In this document: positions 122 through 60,690 of the stretch, one piece after another
Position numbering within the stretch: the first letter of the stretch is position 1
Layout: each line of letters opens with the position of its first letter
Source of the DNA: Deltaproteobacteria bacterium
GTDB taxonomy: Bacteria > Desulfobacterota > GWC2-55-46
NCBI GenBank assembly: GCA_016234855.1
Contig: JACRNO010000060.1
Coordinates: 9,595-73,594, forward strand
Length of the DNA stretch: 64,000 bases
Reading direction: 5' to 3'
Position numbers and translations under genes: made by a program
Notes under the pieces: generated by a model
What the model was told of the DNA's origin: nothing
Database searches by the model: none
What the model saw: only the letters and a program-made list of their open reading frames with translations

Positions 122-313
122 CTCTCCCCCTGTCTGAATGCTCTGCGGCAGACCGCCAAAGACGGACGCCTTAAATGGATGTTTCCTTACCAACAAGAGC
201 CCCGCTCTTCTTGTGTGCTAACGTTATGATTTTAGCGCCAAAAGCCCCATGACTTTTCAAGCCGCCCGTATGATATCCGTGTTTTTTTCAGCGGCATGAT
301 TAGAATTATCCAT

Positions 314-601
314 GGAAGCTCTGATTAATTCCCTAACTCGTCTTTGCGAGCGTAGCGAAGCAATCTCGTATCTTATGCAAATCAGCAAGTTACGAGATGT
401 AAATTATCCGCGAAAAACTACGGATAATTTACAAGTAAGGAATGGTCATTTGTATTCGCTTTTTTCGTCACGCAAAAAGCCGCGTGGTGAAAAAAGCTGT
501 GCTTGTCGCTTCGTCGCTTGTGCGCTAACGTTATGTCTTTAGCGCCTTTGGCGACAAAAGCGCTCCCCGCAAAGACAAAAAACGAATTAATCAGAGGTTC
601 C
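314..601. mobile_element. MITE-like element copy 1 (TIR GGAAGCTCTGATTAATTCC / GAATTAATCAGAGGTTCC)
   Basis: Terminal inverted repeats at 314-332 and 584-601. Internal modules are shared with other copies (GCGCTAACGTTATGTCTTTAGCGCC, GAGCGTAGCGAAGCAATCTCGTA...CAAGTTACGAGAT). No ORF of transposase size. Confidence 0.6.
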
Positions 602-651
602 CTATATCAATACGCGCCGGCAAAGTAAACCGGCGTCTTTGCCGCAATCCG

Positions 652-10465: not shown

Positions 10466-10497
10466 TGTGGCGTCAGGAGGAAACTCCTGACGCCACA
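10466..10497. repeat. GTCAGGAG-GAAA-CTCCTGAC hairpin (family copy H1)
   Basis: TGTGGCGTCAGGAG-GAAA-CTCCTGACGCCACA: 14-bp stem, GAAA tetraloop. 3' of ppiD and 5' of proS. Confidence 0.65.
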
Positions 10498-10545
10498 GTA
10501 ATGACGAGCCTTCGTTTCATACCAATATCACAGATGCGAGGTACT

Positions 10546-12283: not shown

Positions 12284-12452
12284 AATTTTGTCCCGCGTTT
12301 ATTGTCATTTCGACCGAAGGGAGAAATCTTAAGATTCCTCACATTTGATAAGTTACAAGACAAGATTCCTCGGTCGCTTGTGCGCTAACGTTATGTCTTT
12401 GGCGCCTTCGCTTCCTCGGAATGACAGCGAAATGTAATTAATCAGAGGTTCC
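12284..12452. mobile_element. MITE-like element copy 2 (one clear TIR, internal GTCATTTCG...CGGAATGACA palindrome)
   Basis: Right TIR TAATTAATCAGAGGTTCC at 12435-12452. Shares the CTTGTGCGCTAACGTTATGTCTTTGGCGCC module with copy 1 and with 13495-13520 and 44391-44430. Confidence 0.5.
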
Positions 12453-12458
12453 CTGAGA

Positions 12459-12617
12459 ATGCAAAAACTCATCGCATGGATAGGCGCTATTATCGTGAGC
12501 TCCATCGGTTGGTGGGTCGGCAGTCAGATAGGCCTGATGACGGCGGTGATACTCTCGGGCATAGGCACTGGCGTGGGGTTCTACTACGGCATGAAGCTCG
12601 CAAAAAGATGGCTATAG
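12459..12617 (+). CDS. Hypothetical small hydrophobic protein (52 aa, Gly-rich, two predicted TM segments)
   Basis: ATG ORF MQKLIAWIGAIIVSSIGWWVGSQIGLMTAVILSGIGTGVGFYYGMKLAKRWL, below the 60-aa track cutoff. GAGG 10 nt upstream is supplied by the terminal repeat of the adjacent MITE-like element. Confidence 0.35.
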   Translation: MQKLIAWIGAIIVSSIGWWVGSQIGLMTAVILSGIGTGVGFYYGMKLAKRWL

Positions 12618-12819
12618 CGCTGAATATTATTACATCCCGACAGATACCGCCCTGCAGTTCAGGACTTCATCCCCTGAGACGACCCGCAAAGAGAAATAAA
12701 TAACCTCAACAGGCCCGTGATGCGCCTAAACACTGGTTCGTTTCTCTACGGCCCGCCGAGACTTAAAAAAGGTCTATCGTCTCTCCACGCAAGCCTGCTT
12801 ACCATATAACCCCTTATTA

Positions 12820-13254
12820 TCAACACGCGGCCCCTCCTGACCATGAACAGGTGCCGTCAGTCAACATCGTAACCGTTCCGTGCGCCCCGGTTGAATTCGG
12901 GTTGGTGACGGAGACAATATAGGAGTCGGCTATCCCGCCGGCCCCTGCGGTAATTGTGAGGACATTGTCTTTACTAACGACAAAGTAGGCTGTGCCAATT
13001 GTAACAGACGAAGGGCCGGTGAGCGCAGGCAGGGCGAGATAAGTCTTCGCATCAACGAAATAGGCCTCTTCCTGTATAAGGGCGTTCCTTGCGTCGTTTA
13101 CCATGCTTGCATTTATGGCGCGTTCCTTGAACGCCGAGTACTGAGGGATGGCTATGCTTGCAAGAAGCGCAATAATCGCAACGACCATCAGAAGCTCGAT
13201 AAGCGTGAAACCGGCGTCCCTTGACTGCGAATGAGATGAGATTGACAACATCAT
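12820..13254 (-). CDS. Type IVa pilin-like protein (second, divergent pilin paralogue)
   Basis: Class III signal motif G/FTLIELLMVVAIIALLASIAIPQY with Glu5, plus a C-terminal Cys pair (DGTCSWSGGAAC). The track start is the TTG at 13305. The ATG at 13254 (MMLSISSHSQSRDAG|FTLIE, GGAG 6 nt upstream) is more plausible. The leader is atypical, with few basic residues. Confidence 0.75.
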   Translation of the reverse strand: MMLSISSHSQSRDAGFTLIELLMVVAIIALLASIAIPQYSAFKERAINASMVNDARNALIQEEAYFVDAKTYLALPALTGPSSVTIGTAYFVVSKDNVLTITAGAGGIADSYIVSVTNPNSTGAHGTVTMLTDGTCSWSGGAAC

Positions 13255-13303
13255 CCTCGGCTCCATAGAGGCAAAATGAAATATGACAAGACCCACATGT
13301 ACC

Positions 13304-13572
13304 AAGGAACTTCTGATTAATTATATTCTGCTGTCATTCTGAAGGAGTCCAGCACCACCTTGCGTCGCCAAGTTTAGTTTTGGCACGAACTTTTGTGATG
13401 GAAAGTGGTGCTGGACGACTGAAGAATCTCGTAACTATTTGATTTGCCAATAGACAAGATTCTTCCCCATTCGCTACGCTCAGGGCTAAAGGCGCAAAAA
13501 GCATAACGTTAGCGCACAAGGCTCACGCGCTCAGAATGACAGGCTCAGTAGAATAAATCAGAGGGTCCTTAA
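13304..13572. mobile_element. MITE-like element copy 3, abutting second pilin gene
   Basis: TIRs AAGGAACTTCTGATTAATTAT (13304-13324) and GAATAAATCAGAGGGTCCTTAA (13551-13572). Internal GTCATTCTGAAGGAG...CTCAGAATGACA palindrome and GCGCTAACGTTATGC module. Confidence 0.6.
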
Positions 13573-13820
13573 CAAAGCTTTGCTACATTCATGCCCGAGC
13601 AAGCCAAAAACTACATAATTATTCGGATATTCCATAAAAACATGCCACAGCATGTCGCCTCAATGACACTTTTTGCCTGATTTGACACACCTGGGAGTAA
13701 ATAACAGACCTGCACCTACAGATTAATACCACAAATTGACGCTATTGTCACATATATTTTGCAACAACTAAAAAATACCTTCATTTGCCATTAAGATATG
13801 ACACCCGCCAGGAAGAGAAC

Positions 13821-13857
13821 AAAAAAAACACCAAGGCAGGGTTCCCTGCCTTGGTGT
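13821..13857 (-). terminator. Intrinsic terminator downstream of pilA
   Basis: On the minus strand: CACCAAGGCAGGGAACCCTGCCTTGGTG hairpin followed by TTTTTTTT, 37 nt after the pilA stop. Confidence 0.8.
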
Positions 13858-13893
13858 CACGGGCCAGTCTCTAATCAAACCGGCTTCCGTCTA

Positions 13894-14364
13894 TTAGCAA
13901 ACGGCGGCGTTGGCATACGTGCAAACTCCGAGTTGGTTGTACGTAAGATCGCCGTAGGCGCCGGCAGTAGACGAACCTGAATTGGCGTTAGCAACAGTTA
14001 TGGTGAAGGTACCGGTGCCAAAAACACCTGCGGTTGTTGCTATGGTAACAGTATTGCCGAGGCTGACCTTGACAGAGTAGGTATTCAGCCTGGTCGCGCC
14101 GTTCCAAGTCATAATGGCAGGGCCAACGCCGCTTATGCCGTTCGCATCCATATAAGAGTTTTCGTCTGACATGGTTGCCTCGAGATTGGTCGCGGTATTC
14201 CTTGCGTCCGCTACCATCGACGCCCTTACGCCCCTCTCTCTGTAGGCCGAGAACTGCGGGATGGCGATTGCCGCGAGGATGGCGATAATCGCGACGACGA
14301 TGAGCAACTCGATGAGCGTAAAGCCTTCTTCATTCTTCTGTCTCTTAAGCATTTCCTTTAACAT
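13894..14364 (-). CDS. pilA: Type IVa major pilin PilA (Geobacter-type N-terminus, full length)
   Basis: 156 aa. MLKEMLKRQKNEEG|FTLIELLIVVAIIAILAAIAIPQFSAYRE closely resembles Geobacter/Desulfuromonadales PilA. C-terminal disulfide loop CTYANAAVC. Perfect AGGAGG SD 6 nt before the ATG. Sigma-54 promoter and intrinsic terminator flank the gene. Confidence 0.9.
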   Translation of the reverse strand: MLKEMLKRQKNEEGFTLIELLIVVAIIAILAAIAIPQFSAYRERGVRASMVADARNTATNLEATMSDENSYMDANGISGVGPAIMTWNGATRLNTYSVKVSLGNTVTIATTAGVFGTGTFTITVANANSGSSTAGAYGDLTYNQLGVCTYANAAVC

Positions 14365-14438: not shown

Positions 14439-14455
14439 TGCAATGCCCGTGCCAA
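14439..14455 (-). promoter_or_regulatory. Sigma-54 (RpoN) -24/-12 promoter of pilA
   Basis: Minus-strand reading gives TGGCAC-GGGCA-TTGCA, an exact match to the TGGCAC-N5-TTGCW consensus. It sits about 75 nt upstream of the pilA ATG. Confidence 0.8.
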
Positions 14456-14531
14456 CATGGCTTTTTGTTATAAATCAATAGGTTAGTTTAGAACTCCATA
14501 TGCATATTAAGCCTTGGGGTGCCGCTTATTG

Positions 14532-14566
14532 TCACCGAAGTGACAAAAATTGTCACTTCGGTGATG
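14532..14566 (-). promoter_or_regulatory. Tandem dyad (TGTCAC-N4-GTGACA twice) candidate PilR enhancer
   Basis: 33-bp perfect palindrome TCACCGAAGTGACAA-AAA-TTGTCACTTCGGTGA centred about 95 bp upstream of the sigma-54 -24 element. This geometry is typical for bacterial enhancer-binding proteins. Confidence 0.55.
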
Positions 14567-14613
14567 GAGTTAATCTGCGGCGCGCAAGACATAACCCCTC
14601 CCGGCCTCCCCTT

Positions 14614-14716
14614 AAATAAGGGGAGGAGAAAGACAACTCTCCCCCGAGACGGAGGGCAGGCAACCTCTGCAAGTTTGCTTAAATAAGGGGAGGAGAAAGA
14701 CAACTCTCCCCCTCTT
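14614..14716. repeat. Two 35-bp direct repeats CTTAAATAAGGGGAGGAGAAAGACAACTCTCCCCC (GGGGAG hairpin family)
   Basis: Copies at about 14614-14650 and 14681-14716, each containing CCCCTTAAATAAGGGG and GGAGAAAGACAACTCTCC hairpins. Related GGGGAG/CTCCCC hairpins occur at 37930-38010, 44290-44370 and 59040-59150. Confidence 0.6.
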
Positions 14717-14748: not shown

Positions 14749-16158
14749 CTACTCCTCCCCCACCCCATATTTGCTCAGCTTATAGCGCATGGCGCGAAAC
14801 GACATGCCAAGAAGCTCGGCAGCCTTCTTCTTTGCCCCGCCAGTAACCTTCAATGCGTCCATAATGGCCGTCCGCTCGAACTCTTCAACGGTCTTTTCAA
14901 GGTCAAACCCTGCCCCCTCTTTCAAGCGCGCAGGCGTAAGCCCCACGCGCTCGGCTGTATCCCCCTGCCCGGCCGCCTTCGGGGCCTGGCGCGCATGCAG
15001 GGGCAGGCTCTCCACGGTAATCAGATCGGAAGGCTCAAGGGCAACGGCGCGCTCCATTATGTTTTCAAGCTCGCGCACGTTGCCCGGATAATCGTATTCC
15101 ATGAGCGCGGCCATCGCCGGCGCGGAGATTACGGTTATGGTCTTGCCCATATCCTTATTATACTTCTCAAGAAAGTGCCTCGCTAAAAGCGGGATATCTT
15201 CTTTACGCTCGCGTAAGGCCGGCATATCGATACGTATCACGTTCAACCTGTAGAAGAGGTCTTCCCTGAACCTGCCCGCCTTGACCTCGGCCTCGAGGTT
15301 CCTATTTGAGGCGGCAATGAGCCTTATATCGACCGGTACATCGACAGTGCCGCCGACCCTGCGAAACCGCCTCTCCTGTATAAAACGCAGGAGCTTGACC
15401 TGAAGGTGCAGAGGCATCTCGGTCAACTCGTCGAGGAAGAGCGTGCCGCCGTCCGCCTCCTCGGCCAGCCCCTGCTTATTGGCCACCGCCCCTGTGAACG
15501 CGCCTTTCTGATGACCGAAGAGCTCGCTCTCAAGGAGGTTCTCGGGTATGGCCCCGCAGTTGACCGCGACGAACGGCGCGTCTTTCCTGTCGCTCTCGTG
15601 CCATATCGCCCGCGCCGCGATCTCCTTGCCCGTGCCGGATTCCCCGGTGATAAAGACGTTGGTCTTGCCCTTTGCTATGCTTACGATAAGCTGATATACC
15701 TCAGTCATCCTCGGGCTTGCCCCCACCATGTTTGCAAACCCGAACCTGGCCTTGCAATCGTCCTTAAGCAGCTTGTTCTCGAGTTCAAGCCGCCTGAGCT
15801 TCAGGGCCTTACGGATATTGAGCTTTATCTCGTCCACGTTGAACGGCTTGGTGAAATAATCAAACGCGCCGGCCTTCATGGCCTCAACCGCGGTATCGAC
15901 CGAGGCATATGCGGTAATCATTATGACGATGGTCTCGGGGGCCAGTTCCTTGACGGCCTTGAGAAACTCCAGGCCCGTCATGCCGGGCATCTTTAGGTCC
16001 GTCAGCACGAGGTCGCATCTGTTCTCCCTGCAGAACTCAAGCGCGGCAGCGGGAGCCGGGAAACTGCGCGCCTCGTAGCCTTCCTTGCGGAGCATTATCT
16101 CCAGAAAATCCCGCATGTCTTTCTCGTCGTCTACTATTATAATCCTCGGCGCGCTCAT
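14749..16158 (-). CDS. pilR: Sigma-54-dependent response regulator PilR (NtrC family)
   Basis: 469 aa with a REC domain (IIIVDDEKDMRD...D...K), an AAA+ sigma-54 activator domain (GESGTGKE, ESELFGH) and a C-terminal HTH. Sits between pilS and pilA as in Geobacter and Pseudomonas. Confidence 0.9.
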   Translation of the reverse strand: MSAPRIIIVDDEKDMRDFLEIMLRKEGYEARSFPAPAAALEFCRENRCDLVLTDLKMPGMTGLEFLKAVKELAPETIVIMITAYASVDTAVEAMKAGAFDYFTKPFNVDEIKLNIRKALKLRRLELENKLLKDDCKARFGFANMVGASPRMTEVYQLIVSIAKGKTNVFITGESGTGKEIAARAIWHESDRKDAPFVAVNCGAIPENLLESELFGHQKGAFTGAVANKQGLAEEADGGTLFLDELTEMPLHLQVKLLRFIQERRFRRVGGTVDVPVDIRLIAASNRNLEAEVKAGRFREDLFYRLNVIRIDMPALRERKEDIPLLARHFLEKYNKDMGKTITVISAPAMAALMEYDYPGNVRELENIMERAVALEPSDLITVESLPLHARQAPKAAGQGDTAERVGLTPARLKEGAGFDLEKTVEEFERTAIMDALKVTGGAKKKAAELLGMSFRAMRYKLSKYGVGEE

Positions 16159-16214: not shown

Positions 16215-17930
16215 CTACGCCCCGACGGCGTCCTTCTTTCTGTTCGCATTCTCCGTCATCAATCCATGCAACGGCAGAAGTATCTTGAAGACCGTGCCGG
16301 AGCCGAGGCTGCTTCTGGCGTCGATTGTGCCCTCATGGCTCTCTATAATCCTGTGTATGATGGCAAGGCCGAGGCCAGTGCCGGTATCCTTGGTCGAAAA
16401 GAACGGGTCGAATATCCTCTTGAGGTCGTCCTGCTTGATGCCGCAGCCGGTATCCGTCACCAGCACCTCCGCATACGAGCGATGCGCGCCCCCGGACAGA
16501 CGGCTGTCCGCGGAATTGTCGTTATGCAATATCCTTGAAGTCAAGGTCAAGGTGCCGCCGTTCGGCATGGCATGGGCCGCGTTTACGAAAAGGTTCCAGA
16601 AGACCTGCCCTAACTGCCGCTCCAGGCCGTTGACGTACAACCCCTCGCCGAGGTTGCTTTTGATATTGATGCCGGCAGCCTCAGGGCTGTTTTCAAAGAC
16701 CTTTACCGTGCCCCTTATGACCGCGGCGAGATCGACCCTGTCTCTCTTGCCGGTGGCAGGTTTAGCGAAGAGCAGGTAGTCGGTTATGAGCTTATTGAGC
16801 CGTTCGGTCTCGCGCACCACTATCTCCATCAGATGGGCGTTATCTCCGCTCAGACGGAGTTCGTCACTGAGCACCTGTATGGAGCCGCTTATGGAGGCCA
16901 GCGGGTTTCTTATCTCATGCGCTATGCCTACGGAGAGTTCGCCAAGGGCCTTGAGCTTCTCGCTCACGCGAAGCCTTTCCTCCATCGCCTTTATCTGCGT
17001 CATATCCTCGAAGATGATAATGTAAGCGGCCTCCCCGCCCTCGCCCCTGGAGATGGTATACCCGATACATACCTCTACGCCGTCCTTTTTTCTGAAGTTC
17101 TTTTCCGCGCGAAGGCTCTCTCTGGGCGAATCGCCCGGGGCGCCCTGCATCATATCCGGGAATATCTCACGCGCGTCCTTGTAGTATACGTCGCGCAGGT
17201 TATACCCCGTAACATGGGTCGCCTCCTTGTTAAACGAGGTTATCCGCAATAGTTCGTCAACGGTCATTATGCCGCTCGTAATGTTCTCGACTATCAGACG
17301 ATTGAGACTCTCGAGTCTGTCGAAGTCTATCTCCTTCGCTTCAAGCCTCTTTTCGACCTTGGCCATTGACTCGGCAAGATAGCCTGCCAGATACGCAATA
17401 ATGAAATAAGCAAGGATATTCGTCGTTATGGTCGTAAATACGTCCGCCCACAAAGGCGCGGCCACGTGGACGCCGAAGACCTTGAATTTTGCGGGAAGCA
17501 CCCTATAGTAGTCAAGGTCTATCAATACGCCATAACAGATGGCGGAGAGGGCTGCCGCGTAAAGACCTCCGCGCTTATTAATGATAATGGCGCCGCCTAT
17601 GACGACCAACGGATAAAGGACGTGAAGATAGCTCTCCACCCCGCCGGTGATATATACGATAAGCGTTATCAGAAGGATATCCGCCGTGACCTGCATGTAG
17701 ACGAAGAGCTTGAGGTTGGCTATCCGCTTGAATACGATGGCATAGAAGATTGAGAAGAGACCGACAAGGACAACTATTGCATAGAGGGGCGTAAAATTGA
17801 TATCTGCGGTGGAGGAGGCCTTTATCTGAAACCACGAGGTTATGCTCAGGAACGCAAGCCCGAGGACAACCCTAAGCACCATCATGGCCAGGAGTTTAGC
17901 CCGGAACGCGCTTATGGGGCTTTCCTGCAT
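16215..17930 (-). CDS. pilS: Sensor histidine kinase PilS
   Basis: 571 aa with a multi-TM N-terminal domain, PAS-like region, HisKA (GIAHEIRNPLASI) and HATPase_c. Immediately upstream of pilR. Confidence 0.85.
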   Translation of the reverse strand: MQESPISAFRAKLLAMMVLRVVLGLAFLSITSWFQIKASSTADINFTPLYAIVVLVGLFSIFYAIVFKRIANLKLFVYMQVTADILLITLIVYITGGVESYLHVLYPLVVIGGAIIINKRGGLYAAALSAICYGVLIDLDYYRVLPAKFKVFGVHVAAPLWADVFTTITTNILAYFIIAYLAGYLAESMAKVEKRLEAKEIDFDRLESLNRLIVENITSGIMTVDELLRITSFNKEATHVTGYNLRDVYYKDAREIFPDMMQGAPGDSPRESLRAEKNFRKKDGVEVCIGYTISRGEGGEAAYIIIFEDMTQIKAMEERLRVSEKLKALGELSVGIAHEIRNPLASISGSIQVLSDELRLSGDNAHLMEIVVRETERLNKLITDYLLFAKPATGKRDRVDLAAVIRGTVKVFENSPEAAGINIKSNLGEGLYVNGLERQLGQVFWNLFVNAAHAMPNGGTLTLTSRILHNDNSADSRLSGGAHRSYAEVLVTDTGCGIKQDDLKRIFDPFFSTKDTGTGLGLAIIHRIIESHEGTIDARSSLGSGTVFKILLPLHGLMTENANRKKDAVGA

Positions 17931-22445: not shown

Positions 22446-22596
22446 TTAAGGAAGCTCTGATTAATTCTGTTATTTGTCATTCCGAGGAGCGCTGTTGCGA
22501 CGAGGAATCTTGTAACTTGCTGAATTGCCTGCGAAACAAGATTTCTCGCTACGCTCGAAATGACAATTTGGTTGAATTAATCAGAGTTTCCTTAAT
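22446..22596. mobile_element. MITE-like element copy 4 (upstream of pilB)
   Basis: TIRs TTAAGGAAGCTCTGATTAATTC (22446-22467) and GAATTAATCAGAGTTTCCTTAA (22575-22596). Internal GTCATTCCGAGGAGCG...CGCTCGAAATGACA palindrome. Confidence 0.65.
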
Positions 22597-28515: not shown

Positions 28516-28545
28516 ACCCGCCGCCTGCTGCGCGCTTTCTCTGTG

Positions 28546-28692
28546 CCGTCAGGAGTTTCCTCCTGACGGCGGTACCCGGCGGATGGCAGGAGGAAACTCC
28601 CGCCATCACACTAATTTTCAGTCCCGTCAGGAGTTTCCTCCTGACGGCGGTGCCCGGCATATGGCAGGAGGAAACTCCCGCCATCACATTAA
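28546..28692. repeat. Two 69-bp direct repeats (78-bp period), each a double hairpin of the GTCAGGAG family (H2)
   Basis: CCGTCAGGAGTTTCCTCCTGACGGCGGT(A/G)CCCGGC(GG/AT)ATGGCAGGAGGAAACTCCCGCCATCACA(C/T)TAA at 28546-28614 and 28624-28692. About 94% identical. Confidence 0.7.
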
Positions 28693-30989: not shown

Positions 30990-31240
30990 CAAAGCCTTTT
31001 GTCATTCCCGAGGTCTTAGTCGGGAATCCAGTACGCATGAAGATAGAAAAAACTGGATTCCCGCCGGAGACACGCGGGAATGACGTATATCCGTAGCTCA
31101 GGCCAACAGGTCTGATACTGCGCGTCCAGCGCCCGTTGTTCAGGGCTAAACCCTGAGCGACACAAAATGAAATGCGTGTAGTCCAGACAGGCAGTCTGAG
31201 CCTGCGCTACTACAACGGAACGTAATTAATCAGGACTTCC
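30990..31240. repeat. One-ended MITE-related mosaic element
   Basis: Right TIR TAATTAATCAGGACTTCC at 31223-31240. Internal modules: GTCATTCCCGAGG...GGATTCCCGCC...CGCGGGAATGAC (shared with 60600-60690), CAGGGCTAAACCCTGAG and CAGGCAGTCTGAGCCTGC hairpins. No left TIR seen. Confidence 0.5.
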
Positions 31241-31323
31241 CTAACGCCCGGCTTCAACCGCGCAGGTTTCCAACCGCTCCTGCGGCGGCAGGCCGCGGTG
31301 GAATGCATGCCGGAAAGTTCGCG

Positions 31324-41310: not shown

Positions 41311-41459
41311 TTAAGGAACCTCTGATTAATTCATTTCTTTTCTGTCATTCTGAGGAGCGAAGCGACGAAGAATCTCGTAACTTGTTGAATTTCTTAGAAG
41401 CGAGATTCTTCGCTTCGCTCAGAATGACACCATTGTGGAATTAATCAGAGGTTCCTTAA
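41311..41459. mobile_element. MITE-like element copy 6 (compact 149-bp archetype)
   Basis: Perfect TIRs TTAAGGAACCTCTGATTAATTC (41311-41332) and GAATTAATCAGAGGTTCCTTAA (41438-41459). Internal palindrome GTCATTCTGAGGAGCGAAGCGACGAAGAATCTCGTAACTTG...CGAGATTCTTCGCTTCGCTCAGAATGACA. Confidence 0.7.
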
Positions 41460-44071: not shown

Positions 44072-44123
44072 AAGGTGGGTGTCATAGATACCATTTAAGA
44101 AATGCCGTAATTGCAGCGTATCC

Positions 44124-44185
44124 GTGGCGTCAGGAGTTTTCTCCTGACGCCTTGCCGTGCGCCGTCGGGAGGAAACTCCCGACGG
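44124..44185. repeat. GTCAGGAG-family hairpins (H3, two adjacent)
   Basis: GTGGCGTCAGGAGTTTTCTCCTGACGCC and CCGTCGGGAGGAAACTCCCGACGG, at the 5' end of the amidohydrolase gene. Confidence 0.6.
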
Positions 44186-44194
44186 AACAAAAAT

Positions 44195-44440
44195 ACCGCA
44201 TATGCACAAATGTAGCGCAGACCTTTAGGTCTGCCGTTTCGGCAAAACTACATCAGGGCTAAAGCCCTAAGCTACAAACCCATCATTGCTGCACTTGTAG
44301 GAATCCAGCGCCCCCTCATCCCGGCCTTCTCCCCAAGGGGAGAAGGAGCAGAACCTCCTCTCCCCTTTGGGGAGGCGCCAAAGGCGCTAAAGACATAACG
44401 TTAGCGCACACGACACAACGTTAGCGCACGAGAGGATTGA
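44195..44440. repeat. Mosaic of shared intergenic modules
   Basis: Contains GTAGCGCAGACCTTTAGGTCTGCC, CAGGGCTAAAGCCCTAAGCTAC, CTCCCCAAGGGGAGAAGGAG/CTCCCCTTTGGGGAGG hairpins and two copies of the ACAACGTTAGCGCAC module. Lies upstream of pycB. Confidence 0.5.
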
Positions 44441-46460: not shown

Positions 46461-47879
46461 TCAGAACCCGTGGTGGGCGGCTATCGCGGCAGCCAGGGCC
46501 GCGACGACGTCCGTAGGCTCGCCGTATTCGTCATAGTCCATAAGTTCCGGCTTTCTGTCGATGTATCCCGTGTCAAAATTGCCCGCCTTGAAGTCCGGGT
46601 CTTTCATTATGTTCTTCAGGTAGAGTATCGTGGACTTCACCCCGCGTATGACGAACTCGTCGAGACACCTGTGCGTCCTCGCGACCACCTCTTCCCAGCT
46701 TGAGCCTCTTACGATGAGCTTGACCACGAGAGAATCGTAATGCGACGGCACGACGAAGTCCTTGTATATCGCCCCGTCTATGCGTACGCCAATGCCGCCT
46801 GGCGAATAATACGCCGTGACCTTGCCGAAGGACGGGAAAAAATTATTCTTCGGGTCTTCCGCGCAGATGCGGCATTCGATGGCGTAGCCGTTTATTCTGA
46901 CGTCCTCCTGCTTGAAGCCAAGGGGCTTGCCCGCGGCTATCTCTATCTGCTTTTTAACGAGGTCTATGCCGGTCGTCTCCTCGGTTATCCCGTGCTCGAC
47001 CTGTATCCTCGTGTTCATCTCAAGGAAGTAATAGTTCATCCCGGCGTCCACGAGAAACTCGACCGTGCCGGCGTTCGTGTAGTTTGCGGCGGCCGCCGCC
47101 TTTACCGCGTCCGCGCCCATGCGGCTGCGCAGGTCCTCATTGAGTATGAGCGAAGGCGTGATCTCGATGAGCTTCTGGTGGCGCCTCTGTATCGAGCAGT
47201 CGCGCTCGCCCAGATGGACTATATTGCCGTAATTGTCGGCGAGTATCTGGAACTCGACATGGTGCGGCCTTTCGATGTACTTCTCCAGAAAGACCGCCGA
47301 GGCGCCGAAGGCCGCGGCAGACTCGGTTTGCGCGCTGTTGAAGGATTTTATAAGCTCCGCCTCAGAGCGCGCCACGCGAAGCCCCCTGCCCCCGCCCCCG
47401 CCCGAGGCCTTTATCATCACGGGATATCCCATCTCCCTCGCAAAGGCCACGGCCTCGTCAACGTCCTTTACGGAACCCTCGGTGCCGGGCAGTATCGGCA
47501 CGCCGGCCTGCTTCATCATGCGGCGTGCGTTGACCTTATCGCCCATGTCCGAGATGGTCTTGGACGTGGGCCCGATAAAGGTTATGCCCTTTTTATCGCA
47601 CAACAGCGGAAAGCGCGGGTTCTCGGAGAGAAACCCGTAGCCCGGATGGATTGCCTCCACGCCTATCTTCTTCGCAAGGTCGACTATGCGATGGATATTG
47701 AGATAGCCCTGGATAGGCCCGGGCCCCACCATATAAGACTCGTCGGCCTTCTTCACATACAGCGAAGTCGCATCTTCCTCGGAATATATGGCGACGGTCG
47801 GGATATCAAGCTCCTTGCATGCCCTGATTACCCGCGTGGCTATCTCGCCCCTGTTTGCTATCAAGACCTTTTTAAACAT
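46461..47879 (-). CDS. pycA: Pyruvate carboxylase subunit A (biotin carboxylase)
   Basis: [26 protein letters not shown]... shows the ATP-grasp biotin carboxylase fold. Start taken at the ATG at 47879. Confidence 0.85.
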   Translation of the reverse strand: MFKKVLIANRGEIATRVIRACKELDIPTVAIYSEEDATSLYVKKADESYMVGPGPIQGYLNIHRIVDLAKKIGVEAIHPGYGFLSENPRFPLLCDKKGITFIGPTSKTISDMGDKVNARRMMKQAGVPILPGTEGSVKDVDEAVAFAREMGYPVMIKASGGGGGRGLRVARSEAELIKSFNSAQTESAAAFGASAVFLEKYIERPHHVEFQILADNYGNIVHLGERDCSIQRRHQKLIEITPSLILNEDLRSRMGADAVKAAAAANYTNAGTVEFLVDAGMNYYFLEMNTRIQVEHGITEETTGIDLVKKQIEIAAGKPLGFKQEDVRINGYAIECRICAEDPKNNFFPSFGKVTAYYSPGGIGVRIDGAIYKDFVVPSHYDSLVVKLIVRGSSWEEVVARTHRCLDEFVIRGVKSTILYLKNIMKDPDFKAGNFDTGYIDRKPELMDYDEYGEPTDVVAALAAAIAAHHGF

Positions 47880-49655: not shown

Positions 49656-51944
49656 TCAGATCAGTTCCACCTCAAGCATACCGTCAGCCATGGGTATGGT
49701 ATGAACGGTCTCGGATATCATCCTGACCTTCTTGGCGGTCTCGCGGTAATCGGGGTCTACTGCGCTGACTGCCGCATAGAGTTTACCCGCCTCTTCAAAC
49801 TTTTCATCGGCCTCGTATGCAAGCGCAAGCTCGTACATCATACCCTTGCGCTCTTCGTCGCTCCTGCCGGTCACGCGCAAGCCCTTGGTGTAATACCCTA
49901 TCGCGTCTTCGTATTTACCCTCGGACATGGAGCACAGGGCCAGACGCGTATAACAATCGAACTCCAGGAGCGGGTCTTTGAGCGCAATCTTGAACTCCTT
50001 GACGGCCTCGCCGAGAAGCTCCATCTCCATATACGCTATGCCAAGATTGAAATGCGTCTCCGAGTCCTCCTTGTTGAGCTGATTGCCTATGCCGGTCTTG
50101 AACTCGTCGAATGCCTCCTTGGAACTACCCGCCCCCCATGAGCCCGCAAGGTCCGAGAGGGCGTCTTCCATGCCAAGCTCCTTGGAGAGATCGACGAACT
50201 CGTCGCCGGAGCCGGTCTGCCCGGCCTCGGCAACGCTTGCCGCTTCCGGCACGGCCCTGGTCTCGACGACCTCATCCGGCAGTTCCTCGACCATCTCAAG
50301 AGGTTCATGATGCTCAGTCATCTCGCTGATGGACTTCGTAAGGTCGTCATGCGTAAAGCCGGCCTGGGCAGGCGCTGCGGCTTCGTCCGTCTCAACATGT
50401 TCGGTGATAATCTCCTCTTCAATCTCCAGGGAAGTCTCTTCAACCGGGGCCGCTTCAATTGCCTCTTCAGGCGCGGCCTCTGGAACGTCCGCTATCTCGG
50501 GCTCCGTCTCGAAGACAATCTCTTCGGCAACCTCTTCTTCGTGCGCCGCTTCCGGCGCCACCTCGAAGACAATCTCTTCGGCAACCTCTTCTTCGTGCGC
50601 CGCTTCCGGCGCCACCTCGAAGACAATCTCTTCGGCGGCCTCTTCTTCAGGCGCGGAAGGCGTCACGGCCTCGGGCGCGCCCTTGGCTGATGCGCCAGCC
50701 GATACGTCCGCGGCGACGGCGCTGAGTATCGCGTCGACCTCGCGCTGGGCCGCGGCGCCAGGCATCTCAAACTCGACCTCCGTGGCCTTTACCCCGGAGA
50801 TATCCAATTCAAGGGCCCGCCCGCCGCCTTCTTCAACTGTCCCAGGCCCCTCTTCAACCTCAACCTCAAATAGAGGCTCGTGCGGCGCCTCCTCCTTACT
50901 CTTATCACCGCCAAGGTCAACGCTAAGCCCTGTCTCCGGAAATGAAATCATGGGCTCTTCTTCCGGCCTAAGGAGCGCGGGCGGCTCCGGAGTCTTTGAC
51001 GGCTCCCCGACCTCCGGGAAACTAATAAGCGGCATGCCTTGTTCCGGCACGGGCGGTTCGCTCAACTCGGGGAAACTGATAAGCGGCGCGGCATCCAACG
51101 GCTGTCTGGCCGGACCTTTCGCAACCGCTCCGGCCTTGTCCTTTGCCGGCTCCGGCCCCTTGCCAAGGTACTTAAGACAGTCCTCGTCCTTCGGAGAGAC
51201 CTCAAGAATGGCGTCGCAAACAGCCCTGGCGTTCTCGGCGTCGCGCCTCTCCACATAGACATTGAAAGCAGCCTTGGTGAATTTTAAAAACTTCTCGTCG
51301 TCGTGGCGCTTTTTATAAAGCTCGGACAGGCCCTTCAGTATGCGGATATCCTTGGGGTAGGTCTTGTAGAGGGTCGTAAACGTCTTCTCGGCCTTGTCGA
51401 GCTTGTCCTGCGCCATGTACTTCTTGAAGATGACGGCGTACTCGCCAAGGGCGTCGTTCTCAAAATTCAGCTTCTGATATAGCTCGGCGAGCTTCAGGCG
51501 GATGCCGATATTATCAGGGTCGATATCGAGCATCTCCTTGAGGAGCTGCATGACCTCGCCGGTCTTGCCCTTCTTCTCGAAACTGGAGACGAGCAGCGAG
51601 TACTCGCCTATTGCGTCGGATATCAGGCGCTGTTTGGCGTAGAGCTCCGCGAGCTTGTAGTGTATCTCGTAGTTGGTCTCCTCAAGCTTGAGCACCTGCT
51701 TGTAGACGGCGATGGCCTTGAGGTAGAAACCGCGCTGACTGTTGGCCTTGGCGACTTCCTTGTACTCCTCGATGGCCTCGGTCTTCTTGCCCATCTTGAC
51801 GTAGAGGTCGCCGACGCGGAGCCGGATGGAGATATCCTTAGGGTCGGAGTCGAACGCGGCCTTGTACTCAAGGATGGCCTTGTCCAGTGCGCCCTTTGCA
51901 AGGTGCGCCTGGGCGCGCTCCATTAATTTATCTTTAAGGGCCAT
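49656..51944 (-). CDS. TPR-repeat protein with central acidic Pro/Glu-rich region containing 19-aa tandem repeats
   Basis: N- and C-terminal TPR blocks. The centre has VAEEIVFEVAPEAAHEEE repeated about 2.5 times and a long low-complexity acidic tract. No TM or signal peptide. ATG at 51944 preferred over the GTG at 51974. Confidence 0.7.
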   Translation of the reverse strand: MALKDKLMERAQAHLAKGALDKAILEYKAAFDSDPKDISIRLRVGDLYVKMGKKTEAIEEYKEVAKANSQRGFYLKAIAVYKQVLKLEETNYEIHYKLAELYAKQRLISDAIGEYSLLVSSFEKKGKTGEVMQLLKEMLDIDPDNIGIRLKLAELYQKLNFENDALGEYAVIFKKYMAQDKLDKAEKTFTTLYKTYPKDIRILKGLSELYKKRHDDEKFLKFTKAAFNVYVERRDAENARAVCDAILEVSPKDEDCLKYLGKGPEPAKDKAGAVAKGPARQPLDAAPLISFPELSEPPVPEQGMPLISFPEVGEPSKTPEPPALLRPEEEPMISFPETGLSVDLGGDKSKEEAPHEPLFEVEVEEGPGTVEEGGGRALELDISGVKATEVEFEMPGAAAQREVDAILSAVAADVSAGASAKGAPEAVTPSAPEEEAAEEIVFEVAPEAAHEEEVAEEIVFEVAPEAAHEEEVAEEIVFETEPEIADVPEAAPEEAIEAAPVEETSLEIEEEIITEHVETDEAAAPAQAGFTHDDLTKSISEMTEHHEPLEMVEELPDEVVETRAVPEAASVAEAGQTGSGDEFVDLSKELGMEDALSDLAGSWGAGSSKEAFDEFKTGIGNQLNKEDSETHFNLGIAYMEMELLGEAVKEFKIALKDPLLEFDCYTRLALCSMSEGKYEDAIGYYTKGLRVTGRSDEERKGMMYELALAYEADEKFEEAGKLYAAVSAVDPDYRETAKKVRMISETVHTIPMADGMLEVELI
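50508..50655. repeat. 57-bp tandem repeat (about 2.6 units) inside the TPR/acidic protein gene
   Basis: TCGAAGACAATCTCTTCGGCAACCTCTTCTTCGTGCGCCGCTTCCGGCGCCACC repeated at 50508, 50565 and (partial) 50622. Encodes the 19-aa VAEEIVFEVAPEAAHEEE repeats. Confidence 0.8.
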
Positions 51945-52029
51945 AACCTCATCCGTAGTTGATACAAAATGCACCGTGAACCGGCGGGCCAGCGCAACCG
52001 CGCTGCTCCGCTTATCGCATAATTATCAT

Positions 52030-52180
52030 ATTAAGGAACCTCTGATTAATTCGCAAACGTATGTCATTCTGAGCGGAGCGAAGAATCTCGTATATAGGCA
52101 AATCAACAAGTTACGAGATTCTTCAGTCGCTGCGCTCCTTCAGAATGACAGTAGGACAGAATAAATCAGAGCTTCCTTAA
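52030..52180. mobile_element. MITE-like element copy 7
   Basis: TIRs TTAAGGAACCTCTGATTAATTC (52030-52051) and GAATAAATCAGAGCTTCCTTAA (52159-52180). Same internal GTCATTCTGAGCGGAGCGAAGAATCTCGTA...CAAGTTACGAGATTCTTC...CAGAATGACA palindrome. Confidence 0.7.
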
Positions 52181-53027: not shown

Positions 53028-53079
53028 CCGTCAAAGGCTGAAGATAAAATAGACGGACTTTCTTCATTGCATAACTGAT

Positions 53080-53103
53080 GGGTCAGGAGGAAACTCCTGA
53101 CCC
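53080..53103. repeat. GTCAGGAG-GAAA-CTCCTGAC hairpin (H4)
   Basis: GGGTCAGGAG-GAAA-CTCCTGACCC, between accC and the lipoate ligase-like gene. Confidence 0.6.
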
Positions 53104-53161
53104 ACACACATTGAAAATGACGGGGCCCGGCCAAAACAAGCAATGGTTATATTTATACAGA

Positions 53162-54496
53162 TTACGTGAATCTCGAAAGAAAATCAATGTCCGTATTGCC
53201 CGCTATGAAGTCATGGTCCTTCATTATCTTCAGATGCAGCGGGATATTGGTCTTTATGCCGGCGATATGAAACTCCTCGAGCGCCCTCGTCATCCTCGCT
53301 ATGGCATCCTCGCGCGTCTCGGCATGGACTATTAGCTTGGCAAGGAGGTTGTCGTAGTAAGGCGGTACGGTATAGCCGCAATAGATGGCGCTGTCAAGGC
53401 GCACGCCCGGCCCGCCCGGCGTTATGAGCTCTGTAATCTTCCCCGGGGACGGGACAAAGGTCTTGGGGTCTTCCGCGTTTATCCTGCACTCGATGGAGTG
53501 CCCCTTGAACCTGACGTCCTTCTGGCGAAGTTCAAGTTTATGGCCCGCGGCCACGCGAATCTGCTCCTTCAGGAGGTCGGTGCCGGTCACAAGTTCCGTG
53601 ACCGGGTGCTCGACCTGTATCCTCGTATTCATCTCCATGAAGTAGAAGGACTTGTTCTTGTCGAGGAGAAACTCGACCGTGCCGGCGTTCGTATACCCGA
53701 TGCCTTTGCAGAGCTTTACCGCGGCCTCGCCCATCTTCTGACGCAGCTTCGCGTCCACGGCCGTGGACGGCGACTCTTCGAGTATCTTCTGATGCCGCCT
53801 CTGTATGGAACATTCGCGTTCGCCCAGGTGTATGACGTTGCCGTGCTCGTCGGCCATGACCTGAATTTCGATATGCCTGGGGAGCTCGCAGAACCTCTCG
53901 ATGAATATCTCGCCGTCCCCGAAGGCCGACAGGGCCTCCATGCGAGCCATGTTGAAGGCGCTGGAGAGCGCGGCCTGCGTATGGACGAGCTTCATGCCGC
54001 GGCCTCCGCCGCCGGCGGCGGCCTTGATAAGAAGCGGAAAGCCTATCTTCTTCGAGACCTCATGGGCCTCTTTCTCGTCGGCCACGCCCTTGTTGCTCCA
54101 CGGCAACACCGGTATGCCAAGCTCCTCGGCCGTCTTCTTGGCCTGGACCTTGTTGCCCATGAGGCGCATAAGGGCCGAGGTCGGGCCGATAAACTTTATC
54201 CCGCACTTCTCGCAGGCCTCGGCAAAACCGGCGTTCTCGGCCAGAAAGCCGTAACCCGGGTGCACGGCCTCGGCATCGGCCACCTCCATCGAGCTTATGA
54301 TGGAGGTGATGTTCAGGTAACTGTCCGCGCTCCTGGCCGGCCCGATACAGATTGCCCCGTCCGCAAACCGCGTATGCAGGGCCTCTCTGTCGGCCTGAGA
54401 ATAGACGGCAAGCGTGCGTATGCCCATCTCCTTGCAGGCCCTGATTATCCTTACGGCTATCTCGCCTCTGTTGGCGATAAGAATCTTGTTGAACAT
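53162..54496 (-). CDS. accC: Acetyl-CoA carboxylase biotin carboxylase subunit
   Basis: [26 protein letters not shown]... Paired with an upstream accB. Start at the ATG at 54496. Confidence 0.9.
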
Positions 54497-58299: not shown

Positions 58300-58470
58300 A
58301 AATGAAACTCTTATTAATTCCCAGGTCTGTCATTGCAAACTCAGAGCGCCTGTCTGGACTATACGGAGCGCATCTTTGCGCAGCTCAGGGCTTTAGCCCT
58401 GAATAGACGGCGCTGGACGCGGTATCAGGCCTGAAGGCCTGAGCTACACATATACGTCATTCCCGCTTAA
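58300..58470. repeat. Degenerate MITE-related mosaic (CTTATTAATTCCC end; GCGCAGCTCAGGGCTTTAGCCCTGA and CAGGCCTGAAGGCCTGAGCTAC modules)
   Basis: Shares hairpin modules with 31100-31200, 40385-40460 and 44210-44270. Confidence 0.4.
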
Positions 58471-60395: not shown

Positions 60396-60690
60396 TTAAG
60401 GAAGCTCTGATTTATTCTGTCTTATTGTCATTCTGAAGGAGCGCAGCGACTGAAGAATCTCGTAACTTGTTGATTTGCCTATATACGAGATTCTTCGCGG
60501 AGTTTACCCTGAGCGAAAAACTGAGATTCTTCGCTTCGCTCAGAATGACATAGCGAAGGGCTCATAATGACATACGTTTGCAATTAATCAGAGCTTCCTT
60601 AACTCGAATTCGTCATTCCCGCGAACGCGGGAATCCAGAAATCACCAAGAGACTGGATTCCCGACTAAAGCATCGGGAATGACATTTATA
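60396..60690. mobile_element. MITE-like element copy 8 (composite: TIR-bounded unit 60396-60602 plus appended GTCATTCCCGCG...CGGGAATGACA module)
   Basis: TIRs TTAAGGAAGCTCTGATTTATTC and CAATTAATCAGAGCTTCCTTAA. The internal palindrome is duplicated/expanded. 60603-60690 carries the GGGAATCCAG...CTGGATTCCC module also seen at 30995-31090. Confidence 0.65.

Follow-up and report, generated by a model that had tools for sequence, protein, structure and literature searches.

A non-coding MITE of the IS5 family occupies the spacer between the two pilin genes of an uncultured deltaproteobacterial genome, where it is inserted at TTAA and probably lies in the leader of the second gene (pilin2). It belongs to a dense and so far nameless IS5-derived MITE family with at least eight copies in the 64-kb window, that is, the whole stretch of 64,000 nt that was analysed. 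A MITE-like insertion at the start of pilin2 had been predicted from the letters of this DNA, and three measurements bore the prediction out. The two arms (13304-13325 and 13549-13570) were 82% complementary, the end motif TTAATCAGAGGTTCCYT had 15 occurrences in the window where 0.26 were expected, and a family profile built from four canonical copies spanned the whole of 13572-13304 (E = 2.5e-9). The features of the locus and of the family are collected in Table 1.

Table 1. Features of the pil locus, the MITE upstream of pilin2 and the other MITE copies of the window (window positions)
Feature	Position	Strand	Remarks
pilS	16215-17930	minus	
PilR-type sigma-54-dependent response regulator	14749-16158	minus	
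IHF consensus just upstream of the pilA promoter	14473-14485		
pilA sigma-54 promoter	14439-14454	minus	perfect, 12/12; TGGCACGGGCATTGCA
pilA, first pilin gene	13894-14364	minus	
Intrinsic terminator after pilA	13827-13858	minus	14-bp stem, 8 G-C pairs, T-rich tail; TTTTTTGTTC
Candidate sigma-54-like -24/-12 site	13581-13596	minus	GGGCATGAATGTAGCA; 9/12, GG-N10-GC intact, exact 10-nt spacing
MITE body (pilin2 copy)	13306-13568		263 nt, non-coding IS5-family derivative, GGAAC...GGTCC; from end-pairing and profile match
Right 4-nt flank	13569-13572		TTAA, target-site duplication
Gene-distal TIR	13549-13568		reverse complement GGACCCTCTGATTTATTCTA
Subterminal repeat, distal	13530-13542		CTCAGAATGACAG; partner 13331-13343
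Extra internal module X	13477-13527		contains ..GCATAACGTTAGCGCACAAG..; further occurrences at 210, 517, 12377, 44393 and 44413
IHF consensus in central loop	13432-13444	minus	WATCAANNNNTTR (AATCAAATAGTTA)
Family core	13416-13465		inner stem GAAGAATCT.. and loop; 90% identity to the copy at 60447-60496
Module Y, extra internal hairpin	13347-13415		single occurrence in the window; absent from canonical copies
Subterminal repeat, proximal	13331-13343		CTGTCATTCTGAA; partner 13530-13542
Gene-proximal TIR	13306-13325		GGAACTTCTGATTAATTATA; minus-strand TATAAT at 13325-13320
Left 4-nt flank	13302-13305		CCAA, TTAA target duplication in degenerate form
RBS	13261-13264	minus	GGAG, 6 nt before ATG 13254
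pilin2, second type IVa pilin gene	12820-13254	minus	144 aa; 143 aa if the start is ATG 13251
Full MITE copy (end-pairing)	22448-22593		flank start 22446; 87 nt to next start codon
Full MITE copy (end-pairing)	41313-41457		flank start 41311; 21 nt to next start codon
Full MITE copy (end-pairing)	52033-52178		flank start 52031; 56 nt to next start codon
Full MITE copy (end-pairing)	60398-60600		flank start 60396; 30 nt to next start codon
Larger or truncated MITE copy	312-603		
Larger or truncated MITE copy	~12290-12454		as 12290-12456, 2 nt to next start codon, of a 52-aa membrane ORF
Larger or truncated MITE copy (pilin2)	13304-13570		flank start 13302; 47-50 nt to next start codon
Solo MITE end	31242		
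Solo MITE end	58301		

The locus resembles the PilS/PilR/sigma-54 pilin systems known from Pseudomonas, Myxococcus and Geobacter pilA, with which it shares the order pilS-pilR-pilA as well as the perfect -24/-12 promoter and the IHF consensus upstream of pilA. As in relatives, a second pilA-like paralogue follows downstream; in the relatives this paralogue has its own sigma-54 promoter, whereas pilin2 has a 9/12 site alone, with the MITE between site and gene. The pilA and pilin2 products were 41% identical, and both contained the N-methylation motif (Pfam N_methyl) and a C-terminal Cys pair. In pilin2, the prepilin motif G|FTLIELL with E5 was followed by a hydrophobic N-terminal helix, and the protein scored 33.1 bits against Pfam N_methyl (cut-off 21.2) and 33.5 bits against TIGR02532. 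Its Cys pair, located in ...DGTCSWSGGAAC, was conserved in pilA and in the homologue P0002, and we infer a C-terminal disulfide-bonded loop. The ORF was intact, with the same length and cysteines as this 54%-identical homologue. Comparison of the two genes gave a dN of 0.39 and a saturated dS, so that dN/dS is to be read qualitatively alone. An intact and conserved ORF beside an old insertion speaks weakly against a dead gene.

The start codon of pilin2 is either ATG 13254, which the original prediction preferred, or ATG 13251, which is favoured by the 143-aa call of NCBI (P0001) and by alignment with the homologue. The predicted distance of about 50 nt between the TIR and ATG 13254 agreed with the 47-50 nt that we measured between MITE and start codon, and the body of the element was corrected to 13306-13568. 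The TTG that served the ORF finder as the first possible start, at 13305-13303, does sit on the boundary of flank and TIR, as had been noticed, and is an artefact.

The exact ends of the pilin2 MITE were set by comparison with about 70 copies found elsewhere. Its 20-nt TIRs agreed at 17 positions and differed at three, and a perfect 12-nt subterminal pair (13331-13342 and 13531-13542) lay inside them. The architecture is that of a canonical unit of about 142 nt with two extra internal modules (X and Y), and the insertion takes up 267 nt of the 640-nt pilA-pilin2 spacer. The sole ORF within it, of 61 aa, is an artefact. In the target duplication, CCAA on one side and TTAA on the other agreed at two of four positions, and the score against the family profile was 31.7 bits versus 142-153 bits for canonical copies. 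Because its duplication is imperfect, its TIRs have diverged and extra modules are nested in it, while canonical copies retain perfect TTAA flanks, the pilin2 MITE is a comparatively old copy; it is probably immobile. Rfam models gave nothing at gathering score across the window, with chance hairpin matches alone in the region of the pilin2 MITE, and the tRNA scan gave no tRNA.

We then considered the family in the window as a whole. The copies, about one per 8 kb, were all intergenic and had differing flanks. Six full or near-full copies carried the canonical body of 141-142 nt (a unit of 145-146 nt), which forms an almost perfect three-tier palindrome or hairpin, and RNA folding of canonical copies gave z = -10 to -12. 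Perfect TTAA/TTAA flanks were present on four canonical sister copies. Their differing flanks and 4-bp duplications speak against an origin of the copies by segmental duplication. No transposase was encoded in the window. IHF consensus sites were found five times in the window, where 1.35 were expected overall, and three of the five were in MITE loops, that of the pilin2 copy included.

When distances were taken to the starts of the longest ORFs, every full copy in the window preceded a start codon by 2-87 nt, and adjacency to a gene start is therefore the norm of the family. MITE copies in the window habitually occupy the short AT-rich stretch ahead of a gene. The original prediction had treated the position next to pilin2 as special, and this part of it does not hold. 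The insertion upstream of pilin2 is of an ordinary kind and nothing shows gene switching; variation of pilin expression through the MITE, also proposed at the time, is speculation.

The parentage of the family was traced in metagenome contigs. A scan with GGAANCTCTGATTAATT returned 120 loci, in which left and right ends could be paired into about 70 elements of 67-310 nt. Most of these copies were flanked by perfect 4-bp direct repeats, among which TTAA, CTAG, CTAA and TTAG dominated (YTAR type), and the ends of the family can be written as GGAAS.TCTGATTAATT with 4-bp duplications. Two longer elements, of 1149 nt (locus L150) and 1147 nt (locus L103), had the same terminal 19 nt as the MITE and CTAG/TTAA-type flanks, and each coded for a 317-aa transposase. 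This protein matched Pfam DDE_Tnp_1 (113.7 bits) and DUF772, and it reached 349 bits against the IS5-family model NF033581 of NCBIfam, for which the cut-off is 140. Homologues of the transposase were also present at two further loci (L182 and L089). It was 59% identical to annotated IS5-family transposases of enterobacterial plasmids, and one enterobacterial IS5-family element resembled the family in its TIR, GGCAATGCTGATCAAG, and was flanked by duplicated TTAA.

Since the 1147-1149-nt elements share the ends of the MITE and encode an IS5-family transposase, the MITE family is IS5-derived; the GGAA start together with the 4-bp YTAR duplication is the IS5-group signature. On these sequence comparisons, the family is an IS5-family (IS5-group) derivative. 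The likeness to IS5 elements covers the ends (GGAAS.TCTGA..AA), the YTAR-type 4-bp duplications and the 19-nt termini common to the full-length partners. It does not extend to the interior, as the MITE body is a three-tier near-perfect palindrome unrelated to the IS interior, and the full-length partners come from other metagenomes, with none in the window. A literature search for the TIR string yielded unrelated primer matches alone and no named IS or MITE with the exact terminus.

Given that a strong terminator follows pilA, pilin2 needs a start signal of its own. We scored GG-N10-GC sites against TGGCACG-N4-TTGCW, and GGGCATGAATGTAGCA was the only site of at least 7/12 on the pilin strand of 13240-13900 (660 nt). 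The site ends at 13581, 12 nt past the MITE body (13568) and outside the TTAA flank. The original prediction reported no sigma-54 match for pilin2, unlike pilA; this stands at the level of the consensus, where pilA has a perfect site and pilin2 has none, and is to be amended by this one 9/12 site at 13596-13581. Two thymines that all related pilin promoters examined retain are missing from the candidate, one at -26 and the other, in TGC, at -14. The related promoters, from seven loci and including the second pilin of the tandem pair in L205, scored 10-12/12, which makes the pilin2 site the weakest of the set. Sites with a score of 9/12 occurred in the window at 0.2 per kb per strand, and the chance of such a site anywhere in the spacer is about 11%, or less than 1% within a given 40-nt stretch.

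The surroundings of the candidate were also examined. With the MITE removed, GGGCATGAATGTAGCA would be about 57-61 nt from the ATG of pilin2. In pilA this interval measures about 77 nt, in the pilin2 homologue on contig L001 69 nt, and in other related pilins 81-129 nt. If transcription began some 12 nt past the GC of GGGCATGAATGTAGCA, the start would fall at the TTAA target. The gene for the PilR-type activator is 1.5 kb away, with pilS and pilR adjoining. GTGACA/TGTCA motifs were seen upstream of pilin2, and the k-mers that this region has in common with the region upstream of pilA were at chance level; neither an IHF site nor a significant common upstream motif was found to accompany GGGCATGAATGTAGCA. 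The sigma-70 scan gave no match on the pilin strand of the spacer. On the same strand, 13254-13600 contained no terminator-like site, and no sigma-54 core was found within or downstream of the MITE.

From these observations we tentatively propose, as the likeliest reading though at slightly below even, that the MITE lies in the transcribed leader of pilin2, immediately after a weak sigma-54-type promoter. The start signal would be the candidate site at 13596-13581, with the adjacent PilS/PilR system presumably assisting its recognition, and the transcript would start roughly at the distal MITE edge. The resulting leader would be about 315 nt long, and its first ~265 nt would be the whole MITE in the form of a long branched hairpin. 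In RNA folding, a leader RNA of 344 nt reached -118 kcal/mol (z = -5.2). The original prediction held that the insertion separates pilin2 from its upstream promoter. The MITE does lie between the gene and the only candidate; because this best candidate is weak and upstream of the element, the MITE is likely to be transcribed and would not act as a barrier. It would neither insulate pilin2 from a promoter nor supply one, and would at most modulate the message. By analogy with Correia/NEMIS, on which RNase III acts, such modulation might come from cleavage of the double-stranded stem; it might also come from IHF bound at the predicted consensus in the loop, as the same analogy suggests, or from altered elongation. 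Overall, the consequence for pilin2 would probably be modest and may be negative.

We searched for a comparable locus in relatives. Among 5.8 billion proteins, pilin2 had one close homologue, P0002, which is encoded on a 1228-nt contig of SRR22388063 (L001) that comprises the 3′ end of pilA, a terminator, a 400-nt spacer and pilin2. There the ATG is preceded at 69 nt by a consensus sigma-54 promoter, TGGCATAACAATTGCA. Some 45 nt further upstream, L001 carries a MITE-like fragment that aligned in the same orientation with the distal ~80 nt of the pilin2 MITE (z = 8.7); the aligned part comprises what is left of a TIR, together with the subterminal motif and module X. The rest of the L001 spacer could not be aligned with that of the window. 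Because other window copies align with the fragment almost equally well, the fragment and the pilin2 MITE may or may not stem from the same insertion event. A derivation of the L001 promoter from a MITE loop was considered and dropped, as the family profile stops short of the promoter.

The comparison with L001 shows that the pilA-pilin2 spacer tolerates such elements and that second pilins of the pilin2 type normally have their own sigma-54 promoter. Comparison of the orthologous locus had been suggested as a check on the original prediction; it came down to this single locus, which neither confirms nor refutes the prediction, its arrangement being different and its spacer mostly unalignable. 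For our leader proposal, the L001 arrangement counts as evidence against, since a consensus promoter is found close to the gene and the MITE fragment is upstream of that promoter.

Other searches added context. When PilR was used to search species genomes, the best relatives (L002-L004, with 78%, 66% and 64% identity) were not syntenic or too short, and they contained no second pilin and no such MITE. The pilA homologues sit in other contexts and served only for the comparison of related pilin promoters. Exact-protein look-ups with pilin2 (144 and 143 aa) and pilA (156 and 152 aa) returned no contig. A Logan contig from SRR12113407, found via the 52-aa neighbour, was 100% identical to 12379-13481, a stretch that takes in pilin2 and 178 nt of the MITE counted from its gene-proximal boundary (13304). 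It breaks in repeats at both ends, namely in the pilin2 MITE (13481) and in the neighbouring copy (12379). Being 100% identical to the window, this contig provides no second allele, and no empty-site allele or second strain was found.

Among the other explanations, the one that survives best, though we consider it unlikely, is that the insertion effectively silenced pilin2, leaving a degenerate promoter and cryptic or trace expression. The pilin2 site is the weakest among the related pilin genes examined (9/12 against 10-12/12), no promoter was detected between MITE and ATG, and the strong terminator stops read-through from pilA. Premature termination would be a further risk in an untranslated leader that exceeds 300 nt. 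Against silencing, the ORF is intact, with an RBS, the prepilin motif, the Cys pair and a length equal to that of the 54%-identical homologue; the MITE copy is old, and damage would be expected by now in a dead gene. Moreover, five other full copies are likewise located 2-87 nt before the starts of apparently ordinary genes.

It is improbable that pilin2 lacks its own promoter and depends on partial read-through of the pilA terminator, with the MITE as a neutral passenger. Such a dependence would suit the co-directional arrangement of pilA and pilin2, whose adjacency is kept in L001, and a Chunjie copy in an operon of Geobacter uraniireducens is documented to leave the operon undisturbed (cited in PMC10969869). 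The terminator is nevertheless a strong one, with its 14-bp stem, eight G-C pairs and T-rich tail, and the spacer is 640 nt long; the second pilins in L001 and L205, in addition, have consensus sigma-54 promoters of their own.

The original prediction also raised the possibility that the MITE provided a new promoter, in which case transcription of pilin2 would start inside the MITE, at its end nearest the gene, as in some Correia elements. Other bacterial MITEs are known to carry outward-facing promoters (review PMC10969869), and a perfect TATAAT is present on the pilin strand at 13325-13320, about 66 nt upstream of the ATG. This hexamer has no -35 partner at a spacing of 16-18 nt (at most 1/6) and no extended -10, the sigma-70 scan gave no match there, and the MITE contains no sigma-54 core on the pilin strand. 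Because it is located in a variable spacer and is absent from the sister copies, the TATAAT is not a feature of the family. A promoter from the MITE is therefore quite doubtful.

A further extension of the leader proposal has a decidedly low probability. It holds that the MITE was co-opted as the regulatory leader of a gene for an alternative major pilin, inserted exactly where sigma-54 transcription starts, that its hairpin and IHF site would gate pilin2 relative to pilA, and that the pilin produced would change in sister lineages in which the element is lost, inverted or decayed. If it were true, a MITE would be driving pilin switching in this uncultured lineage of deltaproteobacteria. As a separate observation, L001 carries a half-element alone, upstream of a consensus promoter. 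That the arrangement is an artefact in which unrelated regions of a metagenome-assembled genome were joined via the repeated MITE can be set aside as very remote, since, although the family is highly repeated and the Logan assembly breaks inside copies at 13481 and 12379, the order of pilA, terminator, spacer and pilin2 is identical in L001, module Y is unique in the window and limits collapse, and the junction on the pilin2 side was reproduced at 100% identity in an independent contig.

The closest functional parallels to the proposed leader are found in Neisseria. Correia/NEMIS elements are, like the pilin2 MITE family, palindromic, about 100-150 nt long, abundant and mostly intergenic near gene starts. 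They are co-transcribed with the downstream gene, as we propose for the pilin2 MITE, and their central IHF consensus has a candidate counterpart in the loop of the pilin2 MITE. One Correia copy lies between the mtrCDE promoter and its operon, immediately downstream of the promoter, and lowers expression, and RNase III cleaves the Correia stem (PMC10969869). The two differ in that their sequences are unrelated and their parent transposase families are different. The 26-bp TIR and the TA duplication specific to Correia are absent from the pilin2 MITE family, which duplicates 4 bp (YTAR). Furthermore, the outward promoters of Correia elements have no counterpart in the sigma-70 scan of the pilin2 MITE, where the lone TATAAT lies in a non-conserved spacer. 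By analogy, then, the pilin2 MITE may act like a Correia element, yet it is not one.

In a deltaproteobacterial-type host, the Chunjie elements of Geobacter uraniireducens offer a second comparison. As described in PMC10969869, they are 178-235 bp long, occur in size variants, are mostly intergenic and include one copy within a transcription unit. No relationship between the two is claimed.

If the MITE does modulate pilin2, it would be an example outside Neisseria of MITE-dependent control of a surface filament, which would extend a known theme and open none. For annotation, the family is of direct use: contigs of this lineage break at the MITE repeats, and both the TTG-extended form of the pilin2 ORF and the 61-aa ORF can be discarded as artefacts.

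A truncated copy of the MITE, the non-coding repeat derived from the IS5 family, ends 2-5 nt upstream of the ATG of a 52-aa ORF (12459-12617), and its TIR contributes the AGAGG that is found 11 nt upstream of this start codon. The ORF is predicted to encode two membrane helices, returned no Pfam match, and is carried in identical form by the Logan contig L209. Module X, a recurrent internal module, was detected within three MITE copies of the window, and its occurrence at 44393-44432 is a tandem pair that does not belong to any MITE. A diverged copy of the module was also found in L001, the 1228-nt contig with the only close homologue of the second pilin gene.

Coordinates of repeats, control elements and similar stretches in the window
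Feature	Position	Strand	Location or remark
5′-truncated copy of IS5-derived MITE	12290-12456		
Module X, ~30 nt, CTTGTGCGCTAACGTTATGYCTTTRGCGCC	210-229, 517-536, 12377-12396, 13501-13520, 44393-44432		
TGGCACGAACTTTTGT	13381-13396	plus	Hairpin module of the pilin MITE copy, unique in the window
GTGACA-N5-TGTCAC, then further GTGACA	~14555-14527	minus	pilA control region
IHF consensus	14473-14485	minus	pilA control region
Sigma-54 site, perfect	14454-14439	minus	pilA control region
34-nt direct repeat GGGGGAGAGTTGTCTTTCTCCTCCCCTTATTTAA, two copies	14612-14645, 14679-14712	minus	pilR-pilA spacer
Second short palindromic repeat family, GTCAGGAGGAAACTCCTGAC hairpins	10466-10502, 28537-28692, 44123-44194, 53076-53112		
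One IS5-like end plus CAGGGCTWWAGCCCTGA hairpin	31100-31242, 58301-58460		Opposite orientations
Tandem repeat, 3 copies, 54-nt spacing	50477-50673		Within long ORF 49656-51974 (minus)
Similar stretches	46847-47030 / 53461-53644; 47777-47879 / 54394-54496		~71-72% identity

Within the unique hairpin module of the pilin MITE, TGGCACGAACTTTTGT resembles a -24 element, lacks the -12 GC, and is oriented away from the second pilin gene, facing the 3′ end of pilA; the resemblance is probably due to chance. The control region of pilA itself (14439-14560, minus strand) has a textbook layout. In the spacer between pilR and pilA, the GGGGGAGAGTTGTCTTTCTCCTCCCCTTATTTAA copies lie 67 nt apart, and a terminator scan detected a hairpin within both of them.

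The GTCAGGAGGAAACTCCTGAC hairpins look like REP-type elements, with those at 28537-28692 forming a 78-nt tandem pair. The two repeats that combine a single IS5-like end with the CAGGGCTWWAGCCCTGA hairpin represent a further repeat type and have internal blocks in common, and the same hairpin begins at the 3′ end of L001 (1205-1228).

The three-copy tandem repeat, whose units were given as 89-nt and overlapping, suggests a repetitive protein segment. The two pairs of similar stretches are collinear and 6.6 kb apart, which suggests that they represent paralogous genes.
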